DNA of 62,842 bases, counting the filler, from Rhabdomonas costata (Eukaryota), in assembly GCA_019059605.1 (NCBI GenBank). It is 27 parts of 27 records of this genome, joined end to end, with 100 filler letters (N's around TTAATTAATTAA, not from the genome) between each part and the next. Parts side by side here need not be neighbours in the genome. Positions count along the whole stretch, not along the records: positions 9,337 to 11,570 come from JAHMHO010004658.1; 26 more parts are not named here. One strand, written 5' to 3'. Both the position numbers and the translations under genes were made by a program. Below the pieces are notes generated by a model that searched no databases, had not been told where the DNA came from, and saw only the letters and a program-made list of their open reading frames with translations. This document shows positions 21 through 51,552 of this stretch, piece after piece (position 1 is the first letter of the stretch; every line of letters begins with the position of its first letter).

Positions 21-1433
21 CTGCCCGGACAGCAGGATGCGGCTGCCAGCCGGGTCGAATTGCACCCCCTGCTGGCACTGCATGTGCCGCAGCAAGGCAC
101 CTGCATTCACGGTGTAGGAAGGGAGGAGGGCAATGTGGACGCAACGTGAGGGGTTTGGTAGAGGTTCAAAGGTAAAGGTTCTCTTTTCGGCGATACGCGT
201 GCATCAAAGCTGTAGCGAGACCAAATCAATGCTTCGTGACCAAGGAATGCCGCACTAATGCTGCCCATCTCTCACGCACCCACTCCCACACCCACACCAA
301 AACCCTCACCCACACATTTTCGGGGTTGAAAGTATGGCGAAGCATAACAAGGACATACAAAAATTTTGCAATTTTTGCGGTTTGCTGCCCATCTTTGTAC
401 TCACGTGGGCTGGACAGTTGCTGGTGATGGGAGCGTGATTCCCATCCGGAAACTGAAAATCACACTCCCTTTGGCCAAGCAGGCGGGGTGACGCAGCGGT
501 CGCACAAGCCGGGGCTTTTCTTCACTCCAGGAGATGACATACACACGTACACATATGTATTCTCGCTATCGCTTTCTGCCCCTCAACTCATGTCATCCCG
601 ACAGCCGGGCGACAGGCGGCTCTGTGGAGACCAGACTGAAAACGCCCGTGTGCCGGTTGGCTCACTATGTTGATGGAGTGCGTTGTGCCACGGAAACAAA
701 TGAACTTTAACCACGAATCGAAAAAACGACAAGGCAAACATCCGCTCACCCAGCACTGCATCGCACCAACCACACCTACCCACCCACACGCACCGCTGTT
801 ACACAGGGCGATCGCGTCGCGGAGGAAGTTGTGCTTCTGGCAGTACACCAGCCGCTCCACACACATATCAAAGATCGTGTTGAAGGTGGCCTCGTTGTAC
901 CTGCCCCCGGCCGTGAGCAAGATGGTGGGGAAGGGTGCCAGGACAGCGGAGGACAGAGAGAGAGAGGAAAAATAGTGTGCGAGAATAGCAGCAACGTATC
1001 AAGCGAGCATAAATCTTTGCCTAAACCAGGGATCCTCACACTTTCGCATTTTTCAGGAAATTTTCGTATTTTTTTTTTTGTGAATTTTCCTACATTTGCA
1101 CTCTGTCACCAAACAGAGAGGTCAAATTTTGCAAACAGCAGGATACATACAGTTTCAAACAACACCGCAACTTCTGTCCAGGCACAACGTGCCAACAAAA
1201 CGTTTTTTTAACAAAACTTTTCAAGACGCAAAACACGAGATGCCTAAACTTATCGCAAATCCAACGACTCTGTCTGCTCCCCTGCACGAAGTCCCTTTCC
1301 CTCATCCCTTAACTCTAAAAACAAAGAGCAGAACAGGGACTCGGGGGATGGGGCGTCGGGCGGACACGTACTTGTTGCCAGCAGGGGAGCCCTGCTTGCC
1401 GAGGAATACATGGTACACGGGAATGGTATTACT
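21..1433 (-). CDS. Uncharacterised protein, three internal exons (1372-1433, 794-900, 21-100)
   Basis: AG acceptors and GTACGT/GTGCGT donors with matching phases give SNTIPVYHVFLGKQGSPAGNK-YNEATFNTIFDMCVERLVYCQKHNFLRDAIALCNS-GALLRHMQCQQGVQFDPAGSRILLSGQ. Family not recognised. Confidence 0.65.
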
Positions 1434-2234
1434 CTGAGCAAATCATCAGCATCAGAAGCGGCGTGTGTGTTGGGCGCATTGCGTTCTGGCTGTTGCTTGG
1501 TTGACTGGTTGACTGGTTGCTGGTGATCACTGTGGACTGACTGGCGCACGCGCTGTTGGCGTGTGTGTGTGTGTGTGTGATTGGCAGCGTACGTTTGCAG
1601 AACAACAGCGGGAGCGGGATTGCAAACGGCAGAGAAACGCGGTGTTCTACACGCGCATTAGAAAGCCTTTCTCATTTATGCATTCAAAACGCGCAAGGGG
1701 ATTCACCACATTCCAACCATTTTATTTTAGAATTAGTAAACTTTTGATGGGGTACGGGGGCGAAAGCAGACAATGTGTGTGTGTGTGGTCTGTTTTACTA
1801 TTGATGTGTCATTGCGAGGAGGAGTGAGCGTGCGCCTTAAGGAAAAGGTTTAGTTTGACAGGGTTGGGAAAACTTGTTTCCAGCTGCATCGTTGAAAATC
1901 TCACGTTGTACACTGTACCTTAATTGGCCAATCCAAACCACACTCATGTGATAAAATCAACTGCAAAATAAATTCCGAAAAACCCGATGCACCCCCAACT
2001 AACGTTTGCAAGAAAAACAATGTTAGGTGGAGATAGGGTATCACCCGCAGACTCTAGTGCACCATGATAAGAGGCACGAGATGGGGAGTCAGAGAGGGAG
2101 AGCCAAATTTAATCCTCACCTTCAAAAAAGGGCATAAAGATGAAAAAGCCCACGTCTTGTCCAAGTCTTACGCACTTACGCAACTTGGGAGATCAACTAT
2201 GTTAAGTACGCTTCAATATACGCCACCCAACACC

Positions 2235-2334
2235 NNNNNNNNNNNNNNNNNNNNNNNNNNNNNNNNNNNNNNNNNNNNTTAATTAATTAANNNNNNNNNN
2301 NNNNNNNNNNNNNNNNNNNNNNNNNNNNNNNNNN
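2235..2334. other. Artificial contig linker (N44-TTAATTAATTAA-N44); first of 26 copies spaced about 2.33 kb apart
   Basis: Identical N-padded 12-mer giving stops in all six frames. Segments between linkers are all about 2.23 kb, i.e. length-sorted contigs. Adjacent segments are not genomic neighbours. Confidence 0.99.
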
Positions 2335-4057
2335 GGGTGGGTGGGAATTGTGGTCTTCTCCAGGCTAACCGAACTCTCAATGCCACTTGCGCGGTGCTTA
2401 ATCACCACAGCTCACTGCAGCAACGTGGGTTTCATTTCTGACTTAAGCACAGTGCCGTAGGATTGAAAGAGCAGCTATGAAATGGGTTACAAAAACTAAG
2501 CGAAAAGGGTGATAGGGATGGAAGGTGGCGGGGACTGGAAGGTGATAGCGGACGAAAGGCATAATTGCAATGAGATGAGATTCGGGCAAACTGAATGCAG
2601 AGAGCCGAGGAGATGCACAGGTGTAGAGATGTAGGACGCGGTGCGGCAGTGGAAAGATGGGGGAGGAAGGGAAAGATGTCTTGTGCTCTGTTCTCGCAGG
2701 GTATGTTGTGCATGCACTTGGCTCCTTTGTGTTATTTTTATCCTTTCTCTCTCCTCAGTCTGCGTACACCGGTGTCCCTGGCATGGTCTACGGTCCTGGA
2801 GTTGGGCCTGGGTACATATACTGAGACGATTCAGTAAGAGCAGTGACCCAGACTCTCCATCGGAAGGCCCGGGTGGGTGTGGGGTGGGCCTTCTCTTGCT
2901 TCTCTGTTCGGGAGCTCCTGAGCCCATCTTTTGCTTCTCTACTCATGATCTATCTCCAGTATGGCAATGTCTTGGTGGTGCACGGAAGCATTATGCGCTC
3001 TTTGTCATTTATGTCCTCTGCGACCCCTTGGGCCGCTTGTGCGCTTTCGCGTGCACAGAGTCTTTGCGTTTTGTGAAAACCGCTGTCTCCACTCCTAATT
3101 CGTATTGCTTGACGAAGGTGCGTGGGTATATTATTGCCAGTCTGCAGATTAGCCAATCCATTTGGATTCTGTGGTAGCGTTAACGTGTGTGTGTGTGTGT
3201 GAGCGTGAAGGAGGGCGTGCTGCCCAATCCGAACCCCAGAGTACTCTTGTACACCTCCCCATATTTTATGATTCTCTCTCTGGGCGCTTTGTGTAAGTCT
3301 GAGGCTTTCGCATCTCTCCTTCGATTGCTTGCATCTGTTTCTGTAAGGTGGGAGAGCCCTTTGCTCCCTTTTCGGTGTGTTATGCAGCACATACGCACAT
3401 ATGGGTGTGGTTTTCAACCTTTGCATCCGTGTCCTATTTTCTATGTGAGAATATTGTTCTTCTTTTTGTTATGGGTTATGGGTATTCAAGAAGCGAATTG
3501 GGGACGTGATTGCATTCACTTGCATGAAAGAATTCCGCTGTTGAGCTGTCAATTCGGAGTAAGCGCTTCAGGGTTCAGGACTTGAGGACAAAGAACTATG
3601 CCCAATTTGGAGCCATATGGGGTCACCCATCCGTGTGGGTTATGTCCACTCGAAAACGATGGACCCCCAGAAAACGGTGACTCCTTCGCTTTTCTTTTGA
3701 TGATATGGAGCATAGAGTACCCACTGGATTTCAAAGTCACAGCACAATGAGAACCAACCCAACCCACAAGAAATTTGGGGGTGGAACATTCACCGCAAGG
3801 CTTAGGCTTCTTGCAGACCGATGGTTTGGCAAGCCGGAAAGATCATCCTGCAAAGCCGTGCTCGCCCGGGCGCTTGAGACTCGGTATTGCGAACGATTTT
3901 TTGTGAGACTCACTGACCCGCGGAGAAGTAGCCAGCGTAACCACCGTTCCAGAGATGTGGCTTGAGATCCAGGGTATTTGGTATTGGCTGAGAGCCTTTC
4001 CTTCCTTCCCTCTTGTTTGACCTTCCCTCCAGCAAGCACTACACCTGCTTAACAACA

Positions 4058-4339
4058 ATGCGAGTTCTTTCTCTTCTCGTGCCGCTGCTTTTTGTGGCCT
4101 TCGGGCTGGCCACGGATGTGAAGGGGGTTGTCAACCTGGACTCAGTGACTTTTTCGAAGCTCGTGGGGACGCCAAACTTCCACGTTTTCGTGAAGTTTGA
4201 CAAGCAGTACCCTTTCGGTGACAAGGTGCGTGGTTTCCCTGTTCACCGGCTTTTATGGGGCAGTTGCAAACTTTTTAGTACTTCTCATCATCATCCTTCG
4301 TTTCTCACAGGAGGACCAGTTCAAAGAATTCGCCAAGAG
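4058..4339 (+). CDS. ERP29: ERp29-like ER protein, 5' part (exons 4058-4225, 4311-4339)
   Basis: Signal peptide, then KGVVNLDSVTFSKLV...VFVKFDKQYPFGDK|EDQFKEFAK, matching the ERp29 N-domain pattern (LVKFDxxYPYGEKQDEFK). GT-AG intron at 4226-4310; next donor is probably GCGTGT. Confidence 0.85.
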
Positions 4340-4668
4340 GCGTGTTACGCATTGGCATCACGGATACTTTTGCCCCCCCCCCCTGCATATGCAAGGCTGC
4401 TGGGTTGTGGCTTGTGAGCTCGATAGCGCTTTCCTGATGTCAATGTCTGGTGTTCATCAGCAAAAGCAAAAAAATAATGCATACAAGATCAAGAAACGAA
4501 TTCAAGAAGGGAACAATCAATTGCACGAGACAAAACAGATCATATCCATGCACAGGAAAAAAACCACANNNNNNNNNNNNNNNNNNNNNNNNNNNNNNNN
4601 NNNNNNNNNNNNTTAATTAATTAANNNNNNNNNNNNNNNNNNNNNNNNNNNNNNNNNNNNNNNNNNNN

Positions 4669-9336: not shown

Positions 9337-11460
9337 GGTGTGTTGTTTATGTAACAATCCGGGTGTCGAACCCGTTGAATCAAGGGAGATCGAGGAGATA
9401 GCCTGCGAGCCGCGACCTAAAGACACTGTGCCACCAACGCAGGAGAAGAAGCACCTTTTTTGCAAGGCAACCCCAGCAGGTGCAGCTTTAAATCCACAAC
9501 CACCAGCTGTCCTACCTGTAGCACCACTGGTGAGAAATGCGGTGCCACCTGGTGGGTTTCTGCCGCCACCAGGTGGCACCGCCAGGGTCTTCTTGCCAGG
9601 AGCTTTGGTAGTTGATGTTGACTGCGACATAGTATACCAGGCGGTGTACGGTCTCGAAGCCTTCGTCAACCGCAGTCACATGCTCGCCAAGGTCGAAAAT
9701 TCTCGCTCTTCGTTGGCCGCCCACATGACGCGGATGGTCGTTGCAGCGAGGTATCTCTACCACGTTGTTCTTGGTGTGCCCGTTGAGCAACTCCAGCGGA
9801 TGCCAACTGTATTCAATTTGAACCGACCCCAAGTCGACTTGTTTCCAGACGCTCGAATGTATAGCTTGTATCCTGAGGCCATGCTTAGAGCGGGGCAAGG
9901 ACTTGGAATCCGTCAAGGGTCGCAGTTGTGCCGGGTTGTTTTACCTGCTGGTTGCTTGCATAAACCTGACTATCAGATCGGCCGTCGACCAGTTCAGGTC
10001 ATTACCCCTGATGGGCTCATGGAGGTCAAGTACAACAAAGAACTACACCGTCAGAATAAGGAGGCGGGAACGGTTTTCACTCATGAACGGTCCTACTTTT
10101 AGGTTGGCGCAGGATGGTACCACAGACTTCCTTTTCAATCGACAGAGCATCTTGCCTGGGCGTTACATAGTCACCGCAAGCCAAATTAGAACTTGTGTTG
10201 ATGGACAGGTGTTGACGCGGTCATACCGGTGCGAAGCCGTGCGTCAGCGTCTGAGGTATAGCATTTCAATGGTCCATGCCGATCGTTCCTTGGCGCCATC
10301 CAGCCCTGGTGGGGCTCAGAATTTCAGTACCACCATTGCGATATGGTTAAGGTGCTCAGCTTTCCAGACACGTACTCTGCTGAGTTGCGGGAGTCAGCAC
10401 AAACAAAAACAGGAAGAAGAAAGGCAAGGAAAACCAGTGTGGATACGTACGTGCTGAGTCAACACATCTTGATTTCACTGAAGTTGGCATGCCTTGTCCA
10501 GTGCCCGTGCCCCCACAGGTATTGGCTAAGCTGATGCCTACCGCAATGGGGTTGAAATATGAGGATGGGCCTCCTGAGCTGAGTGTGATGTGCAACACAA
10601 TCAGCCAAAAAGCCGCTTCTGAATTGGAAAAACTCGATTTCCCACCCCAATGGGTTGGACAAGCAAGTGTGGCTGTGTATGGGTTGGCTGCCTTTGAGTC
10701 AGTGAGGAGCAAGGTTGCGGTTGGATCTTCTTTGGAACAGGCCTTCCGCAGCATGCGGGAGCAGTACGAACCTTCTGATCCTCGGAAGAAGAAATAAAAT
10801 GGCAAACTCACCCCTGGTGTCATTCCCCCCGGTTTTGAAACAGATGTTCATAATGTGTGTTCGTTCTTGTCCCGGGGGTCTTCGTGTAATTTGGTCGGCC
10901 GGAATCTTGACTTGCCCATTTTCCAGTGTTTGGGCGCCGAAGTTGAAGATATCGAAGAGCAAATTTCGGTAGACGACGCCGACATCCAGGAGGTTAGTTG
11001 CAGGTATTGTGGTGGTCGTGGACCAGGATTGGTGTCGCGGGAGGGTTGCTTCATTTGCCTCCGCAAACAGCGTATCATTGCGGGGTTAAAACCAGGAGCT
11101 TCAATCAATACATCGCCCAGACAAAGATGCCGAGAGCAGTACCACGGCCTCAATGTTTATGGTGTGATTATACCAGGCCTTGCATACCTTCGGGCCGCCT
11201 CCATGCGCATCAATGAAGTTAAGGCTTTAGCGGCAAGGCAACTCGCGCCAACGCCCAAGTTTGAACCTGGATTGCATGGGCTGCTCATGTCTTGGCTAAA
11301 GGAGAATTATGAAGCTTTGTTTCCTACATTCACGTCTACTGATTTCTCTTTTGGAACCGACGCGGATCAGCAGTTTGAGATCTGGAATGCACACTTTCCA
11401 AGAGCCACCGCGCACCGCTAATGCCCGCGCGTGGCCAATGGTGAAGCGTGACTTCCTCAC
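9337..11460 (+). pseudogene. Disrupted replicase of a noda/tombus-like positive-strand RNA virus (candidate endogenous viral element)
   Basis: Intronless ORF chain 9338-10102, ~10100-10457, 10384-10797, 10798-11421, ~11414-11465 linked by frameshifts and stops. C-terminal segment LKPGASI...C...GLNVYGVIIP...NEVKALAARQLAPTP...WLKENYEALFP...FEIWNAHFP resembles the RdRp-proximal region of this virus group. The upstream H-x6-G-x5-E-x2-Y-x5-DG pattern resembles their capping domain. No GDD core is present. Confidence 0.7.
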
Positions 11461-12221
11461 AAAAATGCACAATAATAAAGCTGATGAATGGCTATTAAAT
11501 GATATGTTCGCATCAAAAGTTGATTCAATAACAAGAAATATCATACACAAATATTCTGTCAACCCACACANNNNNNNNNNNNNNNNNNNNNNNNNNNNNN
11601 NNNNNNNNNNNNNNTTAATTAATTAANNNNNNNNNNNNNNNNNNNNNNNNNNNNNNNNNNNNNNNNNNNNAGGCTGGGGAGAGGGGGAAAGTGATATCGG
11701 TCACCAGTAGTAAAAGAAAACTGACCTAAGCTGACTTTAATTAACGCGAAATTAACGCGAAGAGGGTAAGATGCCTTCGAAATGACTCCGTTTTAGTGCA
11801 AGGGGGTTAACTCAAATTTACCATTGCTCCATAGACGCTTAGCAGCTCAAAAAGTCTGCTGGCTACGAGCTAGCCAATGGGCGGACGAGAAGGACAGCAT
11901 TAGCTTAGAGGCAAAGGCCAGTCCGCGGTCGGAGCGGGTTGCTGGGGTGGAAACGTGACCTGAGGGGGATTGTTACTTGTGGTGACAGTTATCACCTCCA
12001 ACTTTATGTGCACCGCGGACCCCCTGGGCGCGCTTTGCTGACCAGGGAACGTCAGTCTGCCGCAGGGGGGGGGGCAGTGAACAGAAAAACGGTGCACCAG
12101 AACTTTGGAGAGTTGCACAAAAACCATCGGCACACCACGGATGTGAGGTCCACTCATCCAGCGCGTCATGAGCTCAACATCTACAGGCACAAACATCAAG
12201 AGAGAGAGAGAGAGCGTCGAC

Positions 12222-48307: not shown

Positions 48308-49307
48308 CTGAGAGAGCGGACGCGTATTTATCGAACACAGCAGGAGGTGGGAAGGGATGGTGGCTGGGAAGAGAAAACCCCACAGGGGTTCAGGTTCTGC
48401 TTTTGAAAAAGAATAGGAATCTAACACATCCGTGAGCCTGGCGGCACTCGGAAGAAAAGACGATGATGATGGTATGGGAAAGGGGAACTCAACGAAAGAG
48501 AGAAATAGCCACCAAGAGCATCCTGAAAGACTCCGAAAACCGAAAGTCATATCTAAACACAGCACCTCCGCGGTGCAATAGCGTTGGGCAGGGTGGTATT
48601 CATAATTTCCGGAGTTAACTAATCCCCAAACCCCCAGCAACCAGGATCTTGCGCCGGACAGGAATGGAAGCTCCGCATTGATGAGGGAGGCGCTGTAATA
48701 CTTCATCTCGATACAGCAACGTTCGGGTGCTCATCCGCATTGCTGGTGAGAGCACCACGTAAACCTTTCAGTCCTGAACTGCTCTCATGTGCGTCAGGCT
48801 GTCTCCAAAACACTGCTGCGAGGAAAACAAACATCAGTTGGGGGTGGTTAGTGACCTGGGNNNNNNNNNNNNNNNNNNNNNNNNNNNNNNNNNNNNNNNN
48901 NNNNTTAATTAATTAANNNNNNNNNNNNNNNNNNNNNNNNNNNNNNNNNNNNNNNNNNNNCATTTGTTATATTTTTTAGGGTTTGTAACTGTAACAATGT
49001 TATCAAATTGTATCTGTAATTTGCTAATTTATTATGAATATATATTTCTTTTTATTATATATATTATTACTATTATTTTTATTGAAAATTTATATTTCTA
49101 ATTTATTGTAAATATTTTTATATAAACTGTCTTTTCTTTTTTATAAAATTAATTTCACAAACAAGAAAAAAGCAGTAGCCAATGGCACTAGCAAAACACA
49201 CAAAAGTCAGTAGCTCAGCATGACGCACACGAGCAGTGGCTGGCCCAGCACGAAGAGGAAGAGGAAGAAGAGGAAGAAGAAGGAGAGCCGCCTCACAGAC
49301 GAATACG

Positions 49308-49697
49308 TCACAGGCCATCCAACTGGACGACTGTGCGCTTTACGACTGCGCAGGTATCCGCTTTGAATCTGATCGGAATTCTCTGTGTTTCGAATTCCGG
49401 CCTCGCGAGCCACTCTTCGCGGGTATCGAATGTCTGGTCAACGGCCCAGTTTTTGCCTTCTCTGATGACCTCACCAAATAAGTCCTGCCCGACCAAACGG
49501 TCGGCCACAAAGATCCCCACCTGCCAAAACGGAAAATGTTGATGTAACAACGGATAATCGCACGTCATTTTGACTGCCTTCAGGCAGTCCTTTGGCAAGG
49601 TCTTAATCATCGTTGTGATGATTTTGCGGAGCTCGCTGAGTTGGCTTGGGGCTGGGGGCTGACCAACCGGGAAAACAACAGTGATGATGCTCGACAT
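49308..49697 (-). CDS. Intronless 129-aa hypothetical protein on the virus-like contig
   Basis: Complete ATG-to-TGA ORF in a good start context (gccaaccATG). No family recognised. Confidence 0.6.
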   Translation of the reverse strand: MSSIITVVFPVGQPPAPSQLSELRKIITTMIKTLPKDCLKAVKMTCDYPLLHQHFPFWQVGIFVADRLVGQDLFGEVIREGKNWAVDQTFDTREEWLARPEFETQRIPIRFKADTCAVVKRTVVQLDGL

Positions 49698-49737
49698 GGT
49701 GTTGGCGATAGGTAGGCTGTTGAAAAGTAGTTGCTGG

Positions 49738-50148
49738 CTATGTGGGCTTCGTGAGCTTGCCTCATTCGCTCACAACAACCCTCAGAAAAAGCTTAGGGCT
49801 TCGTGGCTCGGGCTTGGGCTCGGGCTCGGGCTTGGGCTCATAAAAGTTGCACTCGCTTGCAACAATCCTCAGAGGAAGCTTTGAGGGCTTCGTGTACTTG
49901 GGTTTTGTGGGCTTCGTGGGCTCGGGCTTGGGCTCATTAAAGCCGCATTCGCTTGCAACAATCCTCATAGGAAGCATAGGGGGCTTCGTGCGCTTGGGCT
50001 TCGTGCACTTGGGCTTCGTGATCTTCGGCTGAAAAATCGTCAGTTCGTTGATTCGCTCACACGTGCACGTGGCGTTCCCGCATTGCAAGCATTTCACATA
50101 TATAATAATCTGAAAGATGTGCTGAATAAACTCCTTCGAGATTTCCAT
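49738..50148 (-). pseudogene. Intronless K/P-rich repeat protein with a CxxCxxxxCxC motif and a premature TGA
   Basis: MEISKEF...KCLQCGNATCTC, then 3 repeats of (TKP)n-LPxRIVASEC. The third repeat has TGA (49762-49764) at the Cys position and the frame continues GKLTKPT to TAG 49738. Confidence 0.55.
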
Positions 50149-50270
50149 TGTCACGCTATCAACAACTGATACGTAACAGCAGTAAATAGACAAAAAGTAA
50201 CGTGCGCACTTTATGTCACTAGGACATGTAATTCAATATATTATTATGGAATATCTAATAAATCGTTTAT

Positions 50271-50278
50271 TCAATTTT
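50271..50278 (-). promoter_or_regulatory. AAAATTGA Mimiviridae-type early promoter octamer
   Basis: On the coding strand 122 nt upstream of ATG 50148, within AATATAAAAATTGAATAA, which is identical to the copy at 51081. Confidence 0.55.
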
Positions 50279-50297
50279 TATATTCTATATTGTTTGT

Positions 50298-50331
50298 TTT
50301 ACTTTCTTACATATATATGTAAGAAAGTAAA
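50298..50331. terminator. Perfect 34-bp AT-rich palindrome, candidate hairpin polyadenylation signal
   Basis: tttactttcttacatatatatgtaagaaagtaaa equals its own reverse complement. It sits just 3' of the upstream minus-strand gene. Confidence 0.55.
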
Positions 50332-50343
50332 CAATATTGACAT

Positions 50344-50988
50344 CTAAAATAATCTTTTTACATCTAGTCTAGAAAACATACGTGAAGCAACAATAGATCC
50401 TTCTGTTTGTGTAGTATCCCTACCAACAAGATCATCCTAAAGAAACTTTCTTTCAAGAGGAGTCACTTTCGTATAATTGCGACGTTCTTGCAATGATTTA
50501 CTCTCTTCTGCTTGGTCCATTTCAACCATTTGCACTAACTGCAAATGTCTGAACACCATGATCATGACACTCATGTCTTTTTTTCTTGTTCATCCTGTTC
50601 AGATCCTTTCACTATTTGCAAAAATTTGAGCATTATATTCATAATGCCTTCGACAATCATGTCCTTTTTTCCTGCTTCGGCAACCCAAATATGTGCATTA
50701 TTTTCAAATAATCGCACATCATGGACATGAGGCCTTCTCCAATCGTGGGTTTTTTGGTTTTCCACTTAGAATCATTGGGCATCATTGACAACTCATCACA
50801 TGCTGTTGTCAACTGACCCAATTGCACAAATATTTGCACTGGTTGCAAATTTTTGAGCATCATAATTCCTTCAACAATCATGTCTTTTTTACATGCCACT
50901 CCTCAGTACCATAAGCCATTGCTAATTCATCACTTGCTATCTTCAACTTTTTTATCAGTTGCTGTTGCCTTTGTTGTGAAGTTTCCAT
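50344..50988 (-). pseudogene. Frameshifted intronless helical-repeat ORFan
   Basis: METSQQRQQQLIKKLKIASDELAMAYGTEEWHVKK/DMIVEGIMMLKNLQ...LTTACDELSMMPNDSKWKTKKPTIGEGLM.../KKDMIVEGIMNIMLKFLQ: three related units across shifted frames, with a DNA direct repeat at ~50623-50670 and ~50848-50892. Confidence 0.55.
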
Positions 50989-51080
50989 GACAAAAACAAC
51001 TGATGAACAAAAATTTGAAAAATTTCATCCGAAGATGGTAATTTTTTAAATTATAATGGACTATTCAATAAAATTATTAT

Positions 51081-51088
51081 TCAATTTT
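51081..51088 (-). promoter_or_regulatory. AAAATTGA Mimiviridae-type early promoter octamer (third copy at 51170-51177)
   Basis: On the coding strand 92 nt upstream of ATG 50988. Confidence 0.55.
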
Positions 51089-51552
51089 TATATTATTTCC
51101 TTATTTTAGATGTATCTATATCCGTTTCTATATATTGTTGCGCTTTATCAAAAGATTCAATGGCTATATTCAATTTTTCTTTTATGTCATCNNNNNNNNN
51201 NNNNNNNNNNNNNNNNNNNNNNNNNNNNNNNNNNNTTAATTAATTAANNNNNNNNNNNNNNNNNNNNNNNNNNNNNNNNNNNNNNNNNNNNGGTGTTGTG
51301 TCGTATACGAGCGCCATAAAAATAATAAATAAAATTAAAAATTATAAATTATATACTATTATTTTTATAAAAATTAAATGATAGTAAAATTTAACAATGT
51401 AATAATGTTCTCCCAATTGATCCGCTAAGTCTTAAAACGCCCCCCCCCTGAAAAAATCAGTTGTCCCCGCATTTCTAGTCGGGTTGGTATTGCGTTTCTT
51501 AATCCAAGGAGAACACGCTCTCTCTCCCTTCAGTCCTTTTGCAAAAAAGAAC

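Follow-up and report, generated by a model that had tools for sequence, protein, structure and literature searches.

Whether part of an RNA virus replicase has been copied into the DNA of the protist Rhabdomonas costata is the question raised by a feature at positions 9337-11460 of the window, a stretch of 62,842 bases (1-62842) from the genome assembly of this organism. The window is made up of 27 contigs of 2,222-2,244 nt, roughly sorted by size and separated by N44-TTAATTAATTAA-N44; adjacency in the window therefore tells nothing about linkage. The feature lies inside one entire contig (9337-11570). No other contig of the window has, in each of the three frames of a single strand, an open reading frame (ORF) exceeding 200 codons; here the lengths are 207, 254 and 211 codons. 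Long open frames are frequent in the window, whose DNA is stop-poor, and ORF lengths alone are thus a weak coding signal. From the homology, gene layout and frame breaks described below, we propose that the contig is a candidate non-retroviral endogenous viral element (EVE), a broken partial copy of the replicase block of an RNA virus, and assign to this reading a probability of about 0.65.

The initial annotation had ascribed the contig to the replicase of an RNA virus using an RdRp (RNA-dependent RNA polymerase), which is borne out by protein homology. A HMMER search with 10384-11418 as the query, the TAA being read as X, against 1.84 billion representative proteins yielded 18 matches. Fourteen of these span query positions 153-343 and hit the N-termini of RdRp-side proteins; the other four (P0007 at 1.1e-22, P0010, P0014 and P0015) span query positions 24-135 and hit the C-termini of ORF1-type proteins. 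A Pfam scan that took in ten of the 18 matches (eight RdRp-side proteins plus ORF1-side P0007 and P0014) located RdRP_1 and/or RdRP_2 at residues ~230-500 in 7/7 RdRp-side proteins of ~590-710 aa, and no Pfam family in P0002 (329 aa), P0007 or P0014. When the proteins were aligned to the contig by tblastn, P0007 matched 9593-10099 with 53% identity over 169 aa (E 6e-61), P0002 matched 10861-11409 with 48% identity over 183 aa (E 2e-55), P0004 matched 11119-11409 with 65% identity over 97 aa (E 4e-46) and P0003 matched the RdRp N-terminal part with 42% identity (E 2e-45). In these alignments the plus strand of the contig corresponds first to the ~380-aa domain at the C-terminus of a large ORF1 and then to the ~205 aa at the N-terminus of an RdRp. 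The viral origin of the contig is thereby shown at the level of sequence comparison.

Searches with the contig itself were silent. Pfam gave no match on six plus-strand pieces, none at E <= 0.1 on five minus-strand open frames, and on neither strand a reverse transcriptase, an integrase or a cellular family. The ESM Atlas returned no usable match to 10798-11418, a PDB sequence search with contig pieces gave a best E not below 0.78, and none of seven window ORFs was present in an exact look-up in a 15-billion protein collection. No near-identical exogenous virus was found in the protein collections, the closest sequences having 64-65% aa identity, and IMG/VR searched with the contig's own pieces gave no close relative. 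Within the window, a tblastn search for a second copy in the other 26 contigs produced 12 high-scoring segment pairs, all with E of at least 0.12. A best match to a cellular or retrotransposon protein, named at the outset as one result that would speak against a viral source, is contradicted by the HMMER search, in which all 18 matches were RdRp-side proteins or the ORF1 domain adjoining them upstream. The explanation of the contig as a cellular or retrotransposon gene found no support and is effectively excluded.

The in-frame stop of the contig had been counted among the signs of decay, a view that comparison with related genomes overturns. A profile-guided scan of IMG/VR gave 232 related stretches, of which 80 loci were kept, and genome design was counted over the 29 loci with more than ~1 kb of sequence ahead of the RdRp match. 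In 11/29 loci the RdRp is preceded by a long ORF (251-1561 codons) in the same frame, from which one stop separates it; the upstream ORF overlaps the RdRp in a different frame in 4/29, and the RdRp lies within a longer ORF or reaches the locus edge in 14/29. The contig's closest kin, L002 (10.3 kb), L003 (6.6 kb) and L004, all have the single-stop form, with an ORF1 of ~1330-1350 aa where complete. The nearest relative, L081, is a 2,167-nt JGI contig that holds both P0007 and P0004 in the order ORF1, TAG and RdRp in frame, with no in-frame ATG for 104 codons; K.TPG stands directly after the stop in both L081 and the R. costata contig. Among 12 relatives the stop is TGA in eight and TAG in four; in the contig it is TAA. 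Because the relatives (the 11 loci and L081) have their single ORF1 stop at this very place, the TAA at 10795-10797 is ancestral and not damage.

Further downstream, a zinc-finger-like CxxC-x12-CxxC motif, whose cysteines (columns C56, C59, C72 and C75 of the RdRp alignment A1) are at least 90% conserved at the RdRp N-terminus of the clade, is intact in the contig copy at 10999-11058. The first in-frame Met is located past this motif or more than 100 codons in for 5 of 13 sequences (the 11 loci, L081 and the contig); in the contig RdRp the first in-frame ATG is at 11203. The possibility that P0004 is itself a broken copy was ruled out, as its Met is simply the earliest ATG that follows the L081 stop. 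The best reading of these layouts is that the source virus had a readthrough replicase, with ORF1, a stop and the RdRp in the same frame.

The related loci show several further features. Four of them (L003, L008, L012 and L026, 5.3-6.6 kb) contain ORF1 and the readthrough RdRp only, with no third ORF of at least 200 codons; these viruses either lack a capsid gene or carry it on another segment. Additional downstream ORFs, with no Pfam match, occur in L005 and L013. Host-like domains occur in some ORF1 products: an RNase H1 N-terminal (Cauli_VI) domain in L003 (ORF1 at 515-4564; E 5e-13) and RING fingers in L012 (418-3636) and L013 (360-5042), with E down to 1e-20. No helicase, protease or methyltransferase was detected by Pfam in these three ORF1s.

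Unlike its relatives, the contig copy is broken. The earlier count on one strand, three or more frameshifts plus an in-frame stop, was recovered as four frame changes (~10100, 10284-10303, 10370-10497 and ~11410) and the TAA. Break 1 affects one base within a T4 run, and break 4 is a small event. At break 2, 20 nt separate the VHAD and PWWG codons versus 63 nt in 4/4 close relatives, a loss of 43 nt, and the segment shortened here is present in 7/7 aligned relatives covering the region. At break 3, 128 nt separate FPD from PVPVP versus 54-57 nt in three relatives; the extra 71-74 bases are purine-rich and flanked by a direct repeat (10370-10385 and 10445-10459), which was read from the sequence, its copies differing by one indel, and was not returned by a gap-free repeat finder. 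At the 3' side, RdRp homology stops at 11464, at about residue 205 of a ~620-aa protein and just before a conserved FLKxEKxDK block, and the RdRp profile alignment extends to position ~211 of 607. The catalytic core (D315, D320 and the SG..T..N and GDD columns of A1), which the full-length relatives possess, lies outside the contig, and the invariant columns from K224 on have no counterpart; the alignment shows the whole catalytic part of the RdRp to be lost. Judged as EVEs are, against exogenous relatives, the sequence is incomplete and disrupted. The six homologous segments contain 0 stop codons in 675 codons, and several indels with no nonsense change suggest a short period of decay.

A number of observations weigh against this interpretation. 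Sequencing errors could account for two of the four breaks, which involve a single base each, in one case within the T run; the case for decay is one of indels, since nonsense substitutions are absent from the 675 codons. Comparison at the contig ends is limited because L081 carries assembly artefacts: at 2037-2167 its final ~57 nt repeat, in reverse complement, what comes just before them (a fold-back artefact of assembly or cDNA), and the frame changes in a (TG)n run close to the 5' end (85-107). In the R. costata contig the ORF1 frame is already open at the first base and no host flank is recognisable at either end; the sole non-viral stretch is an AT-rich tail of 106 nt, whose composition would be unusual in the other contigs as well. 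Neither a retroelement, a poly-A tail nor a host gene was found on the contig.

Taken further, the first of these points would make the breaks assembly or sequencing errors in an intact copy, which would then be a viral sequence in its complete form or else a domesticated gene that the host expresses. The high conservation at the amino acid level (53-65%), like the single-base breaks and the absence of nonsense changes, is in keeping with this, but a 43-nt loss and a repeat-bounded gain of 71-74 nt are atypical of base-calling errors, RdRp homology ends before the catalytic motifs, and domain matches elsewhere in the window are unbroken, as in an emp24 match. We give this explanation a slim chance.

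The tail has a GC content of 0.30, compared with 0.52 for the rest of the contig, and no match elsewhere in the window; equally AT-rich 106-nt windows make up 55/5536 of those in the other contigs, 48 of them in the contig at 48961-51191. A weak FL..K...KAD match in a MAFFT alignment raised the idea that the tail continues the RdRp. This was rejected as unproven, since the tail scores 0.4 bits against the RdRp profile, a value equalled by 224/2000 shuffles. The tail is DNA of a flank or a filler, or else viral sequence that has decayed badly. A search for a relic of the dinoflagellate spliced leader gave 0 matches with up to three mismatches.

The lack of host flanks on a short unplaced contig is also what would be seen if the contig were not integrated and had entered the assembly from the RNA or cDNA of a virus infecting the sequenced culture, such as a defective genome. 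Defective RNAs can bear deletions and rearrangements, and a 17-nt inverted repeat in the contig, along with the fold-back end of L081, shows that template-switch artefacts occur in such sequences. However, the split genes on the other contigs give these the look of genomic DNA, DNA libraries do not normally capture RNA, four frame breaks and a lost polymerase core would not be tolerated in a virus that replicates, and no near-identical sequence was found in the protein collections or in IMG/VR. On this evidence, a non-integrated source is unlikely.

The composition of the contig bears on its residence. With a GC content of 0.51 and a dinucleotide-signature distance that ranks 14th of 27, it is no outlier, and its CpG (0.78) and TpA (0.58) values are near those of the other contigs (0.75 and 0.54). 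Such a mid-range composition fits residence in the genome and equally a host-adapted virus. It speaks against the proposal that the element belongs to the DNA of a contaminant or co-cultured eukaryote, to which the small size (2.2 kb) and unplaced status of the contig lend themselves, as does the presence of at least one outlier contig (48961-51191), which implies that the unplaced set is heterogeneous. We consider a contaminant quite unlikely, and a less likely source than non-integrated viral nucleic acid.

The remaining contigs resemble eukaryotic genomic DNA: one has a full, unbroken emp24/GOLD domain (profile positions 2-181 of 182), and partial DSPc, 26S proteasome subunit 7 (PRS7_OB), TauE and DAO matches occur within longer ORFs of others. 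The initial annotation had set the broken frames against intact host exons nearby; these sit on unlinked contigs. The outlier at 48961-51191 has a GC content of 0.39 and a trinucleotide correlation with the other contigs of 0.30 (0.70-0.94 for the rest), and contains low-complexity SP/RSP-type repeats, with no clear gene under table 4 or table 11. A scan of the entire window with Rfam gave 0 families.

In the model that we favor, an EVE would have arisen from an internal piece of ~2.1-2.2 kb of a positive-strand RNA virus genome, one that took in the C-terminal domain of ORF1, its stop and the initial third of the RdRp. The viral RNA may have been reverse-transcribed by a host retroelement enzyme, which is the established route for such elements, and the DNA copy would have been inserted into nuclear DNA. 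Neutral decay would have acted since insertion, for a short time. The copy presumably has no protein function; it could at most be a source of antiviral small RNA. That this is a true germline insertion, and thus the first host anchor for a readthrough-replicase clade represented hitherto by nameless environmental contigs, has in our estimation an even chance.

To place the source virus, Pfam was run over 15 aligned RdRps of relatives, in which RdRP_2 and RdRP_1 were each found in 15/15, RdRP_4 in 8/15 and RdRP_3 in 2/15. A PDB profile search was led by picornavirus 3D (2.7e-9), pestivirus NS5B (1.1e-8) and alphavirus nsP4 (7e-7). On these profile matches, the polymerase is certainly an RdRp of positive-strand type. 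The segment NEVKALAARQLAPTP...FEIWNAHFP...ANARAW, said earlier to resemble the region preceding motif F, indeed aligns to RdRp residues ~120-200, just before the FLKxEKxDK block, which we take to be motif F. The label noda/tombus-like fared less well and describes a loose neighborhood at best, given the Pfam counts for RdRP_3 versus RdRP_2 and RdRP_1. The link runs via distant kin only: polyproteins that combine Chropara_Vmeth/Vmethyltransf with RdRP_3 are encoded in loci at 24-30% identity (E ~1e-19), a nodavirus-type Peptidase_A6 capsid domain is present in one of them, and in L059 and L060 RdRP_3 is the top match, alongside Chropara_Vmeth. The relatives do share with tombusviruses the production of the polymerase by readthrough of an upstream replicase ORF; because this design occurs outside tombusviruses too, it does not define tombus-like membership.

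In an 18-row tree of the RdRp N-terminal region, the contig is sister to P0004/L081 (99/95) and this pair falls inside a clade of P0002, P0003, P0024 and P0025, with most deeper forks unresolved. The sources give no virus name for the relatives beyond "hypothetical protein", and a "longer" search with the ORF1-domain alignment found nothing, which is weak evidence. The lineage of the source virus is unnamed and known from environmental contigs only.

The upstream region of the contig had been thought to resemble, through VDLFPDAR and HRQNKEAG...RLAQDG, an N-terminal methyl/guanylyltransferase. Both motifs fall in the ~380-aa domain that forms the C-terminus, not the N-terminus, of ORF1 in the relatives, and this domain has no Pfam match in the contig pieces or in the relatives. 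An hhalign comparison of the ORF1-domain alignment (A2) with a 17-row viral methyltransferase alignment built from the distant loci gave a probability of 0.1%, and the assignment is not sustained. An AlphaFold model of P0007 made from 8 sequences was poor (pLDDT 60.6, pTM 0.47), and Foldseek comparison of this model with the PDB found nothing at E <= 0.001; the insignificant rows included SAM methyltransferases and alphavirus nsP1 (E 0.04-0.14, TM <= 0.19) and were not counted as evidence.

The features of the contig are collected in Table 1. The proline-rich stretch at its 5' end is probably a variable linker of the viral ORF1: BLASTP of this stretch against the relatives' ORF1 gave only nonspecific proline-rich matches, and CCLCNNPG at the contig end resembles, by eye, VCVCNNPG at the matching place in L081. 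The inverted repeat looks like a templated fold-back copy; its second arm encodes PPGGTA, where L081 has PPIMPNA.

Table 1. Features of the contig at 9337-11570, in window coordinates.
Feature	Position	Strand	Remarks
Proline-rich stretch	9337..9523	+	Same open frame as downstream ORF1 domain; contig begins within
Inverted repeat	9539..9582	.	Perfect 17-nt arms (100% complementary), 10-nt loop, within ORF1 frame
ORF1 C-terminal domain, part 1	9524..10099	+	P0007 residues 1-169; P0014 from residue 167 (tblastn)
Break 1, frame change in T4 run	10097..10102	+	Makes TAG at 10100-10102
ORF1 C-terminal domain, part 2, second frame	10098..10283	+	tblastn to 10346, P0007 169-254, 40%, E 4e-12
Break 2, 43-nt loss and frame change	10284..10303	+	20 nt vs 63 nt in relatives
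ORF1 C-terminal domain, part 3 (PWWG..FQY..FPD), first frame again	10280..10369	+	P0007 245-274, 60% (tblastn)
Break 3, 71-74-nt gain and frame change	10370..10497	+	128 nt vs 54-57 nt in relatives
ORF1 C-terminal domain, last part, third frame	10471..10794	+	tblastn to 10776, P0007 284-385, 51%, E 5e-34
TAA at ORF1 stop position	10795..10797	+	Relatives' single in-frame stop there
RdRp N-terminal region, part 1	10798..11409	+	Homology 10843-11409; frame = that upstream of TAA
Break 4, frame change within FPRAT/RTANARAW	11409..11412	+	tblastn, alignment
RdRp N-terminal region, part 2 (RTANARAWPMVKRDFL), shifted frame	11411..11464	+	Homology 11396-11464; P0002 180-202, 65% (tblastn)
AT-rich tail, GC 0.30	11465..11570	.	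No detectable homology

To our knowledge, most RNA virus lineages recovered from metatranscriptomes have no known host. If the contig is what we propose, a DNA fossil in a named eukaryote gives such an orphan lineage a host and a minimum age: the clade infects, or has infected, the lineage of this protist, and more copies in the assembly could date the association. The locus may also feed an RNA-based antiviral memory. This host anchor is provisional until a junction with host DNA is seen. The analysis also defines traits of the clade, namely an ORF1 of ~1300 aa, an N-terminal CxxC..CxxC motif in the RdRp and, often, no capsid gene on the contig, and the clarified ORF1-stop-RdRp design should aid annotation of environmental relatives.

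The systems closest to the contig are its environmental relatives (L081; L002, L003 and L004 from IMG/VR; P0003, P0024 and P0025), with which it shares the ORF1 C-terminal domain, the position of the stop, the in-frame RdRp and the N-terminal CxxC..CxxC motif. It differs from the nearest of them in sequence (53-65% aa identity), in its four breaks, in having TAA instead of TGA or TAG, and in what is missing, namely some two thirds of the RdRp and the entire part of ORF1 that precedes the last domain. Readthrough replicases are found in tombusviruses (p33/p92), tobamoviruses (126K/183K) and alphaviruses (the opal stop between nsP3 and nsP4). As in all three groups, the polymerase of the clade is a C-terminal extension made by readthrough of a single stop; unlike them, the clade has an ORF1 of ~1330-1350 aa with no methyltransferase or helicase detected by Pfam.

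Animal and plant genomes commonly contain endogenous copies of RNA viruses. In protists few have been documented, in dinoflagellates and in Perkinsus (PMC10235124, PMC12548735). The dinoRNAV elements of Symbiodiniaceae are gene fragments of positive-strand RdRps present as DNA, mostly incomplete and isolated on scaffolds, for which retroelement-mediated integration has been proposed (PMC10235124). They occur in many copies, on scaffolds and chromosomes where genes of the host and of retroelements lie close by, and their source virus has one ORF for the RdRp and one for the capsid, separated by a long noncoding spacer (PMC10235124). The R. costata element, in contrast, is one flankless contig with the order ORF1, stop, RdRp. 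RdRp-like EVEs have also been described in Perkinsus olseni, where they are reported as the first for that phylum (PMC12548735). Those elements are Mononegavirales-like, that is, negative-strand, and were found as annotated proteins in three assemblies (PMC12548735), whereas the source of the R. costata contig is a positive-strand virus.

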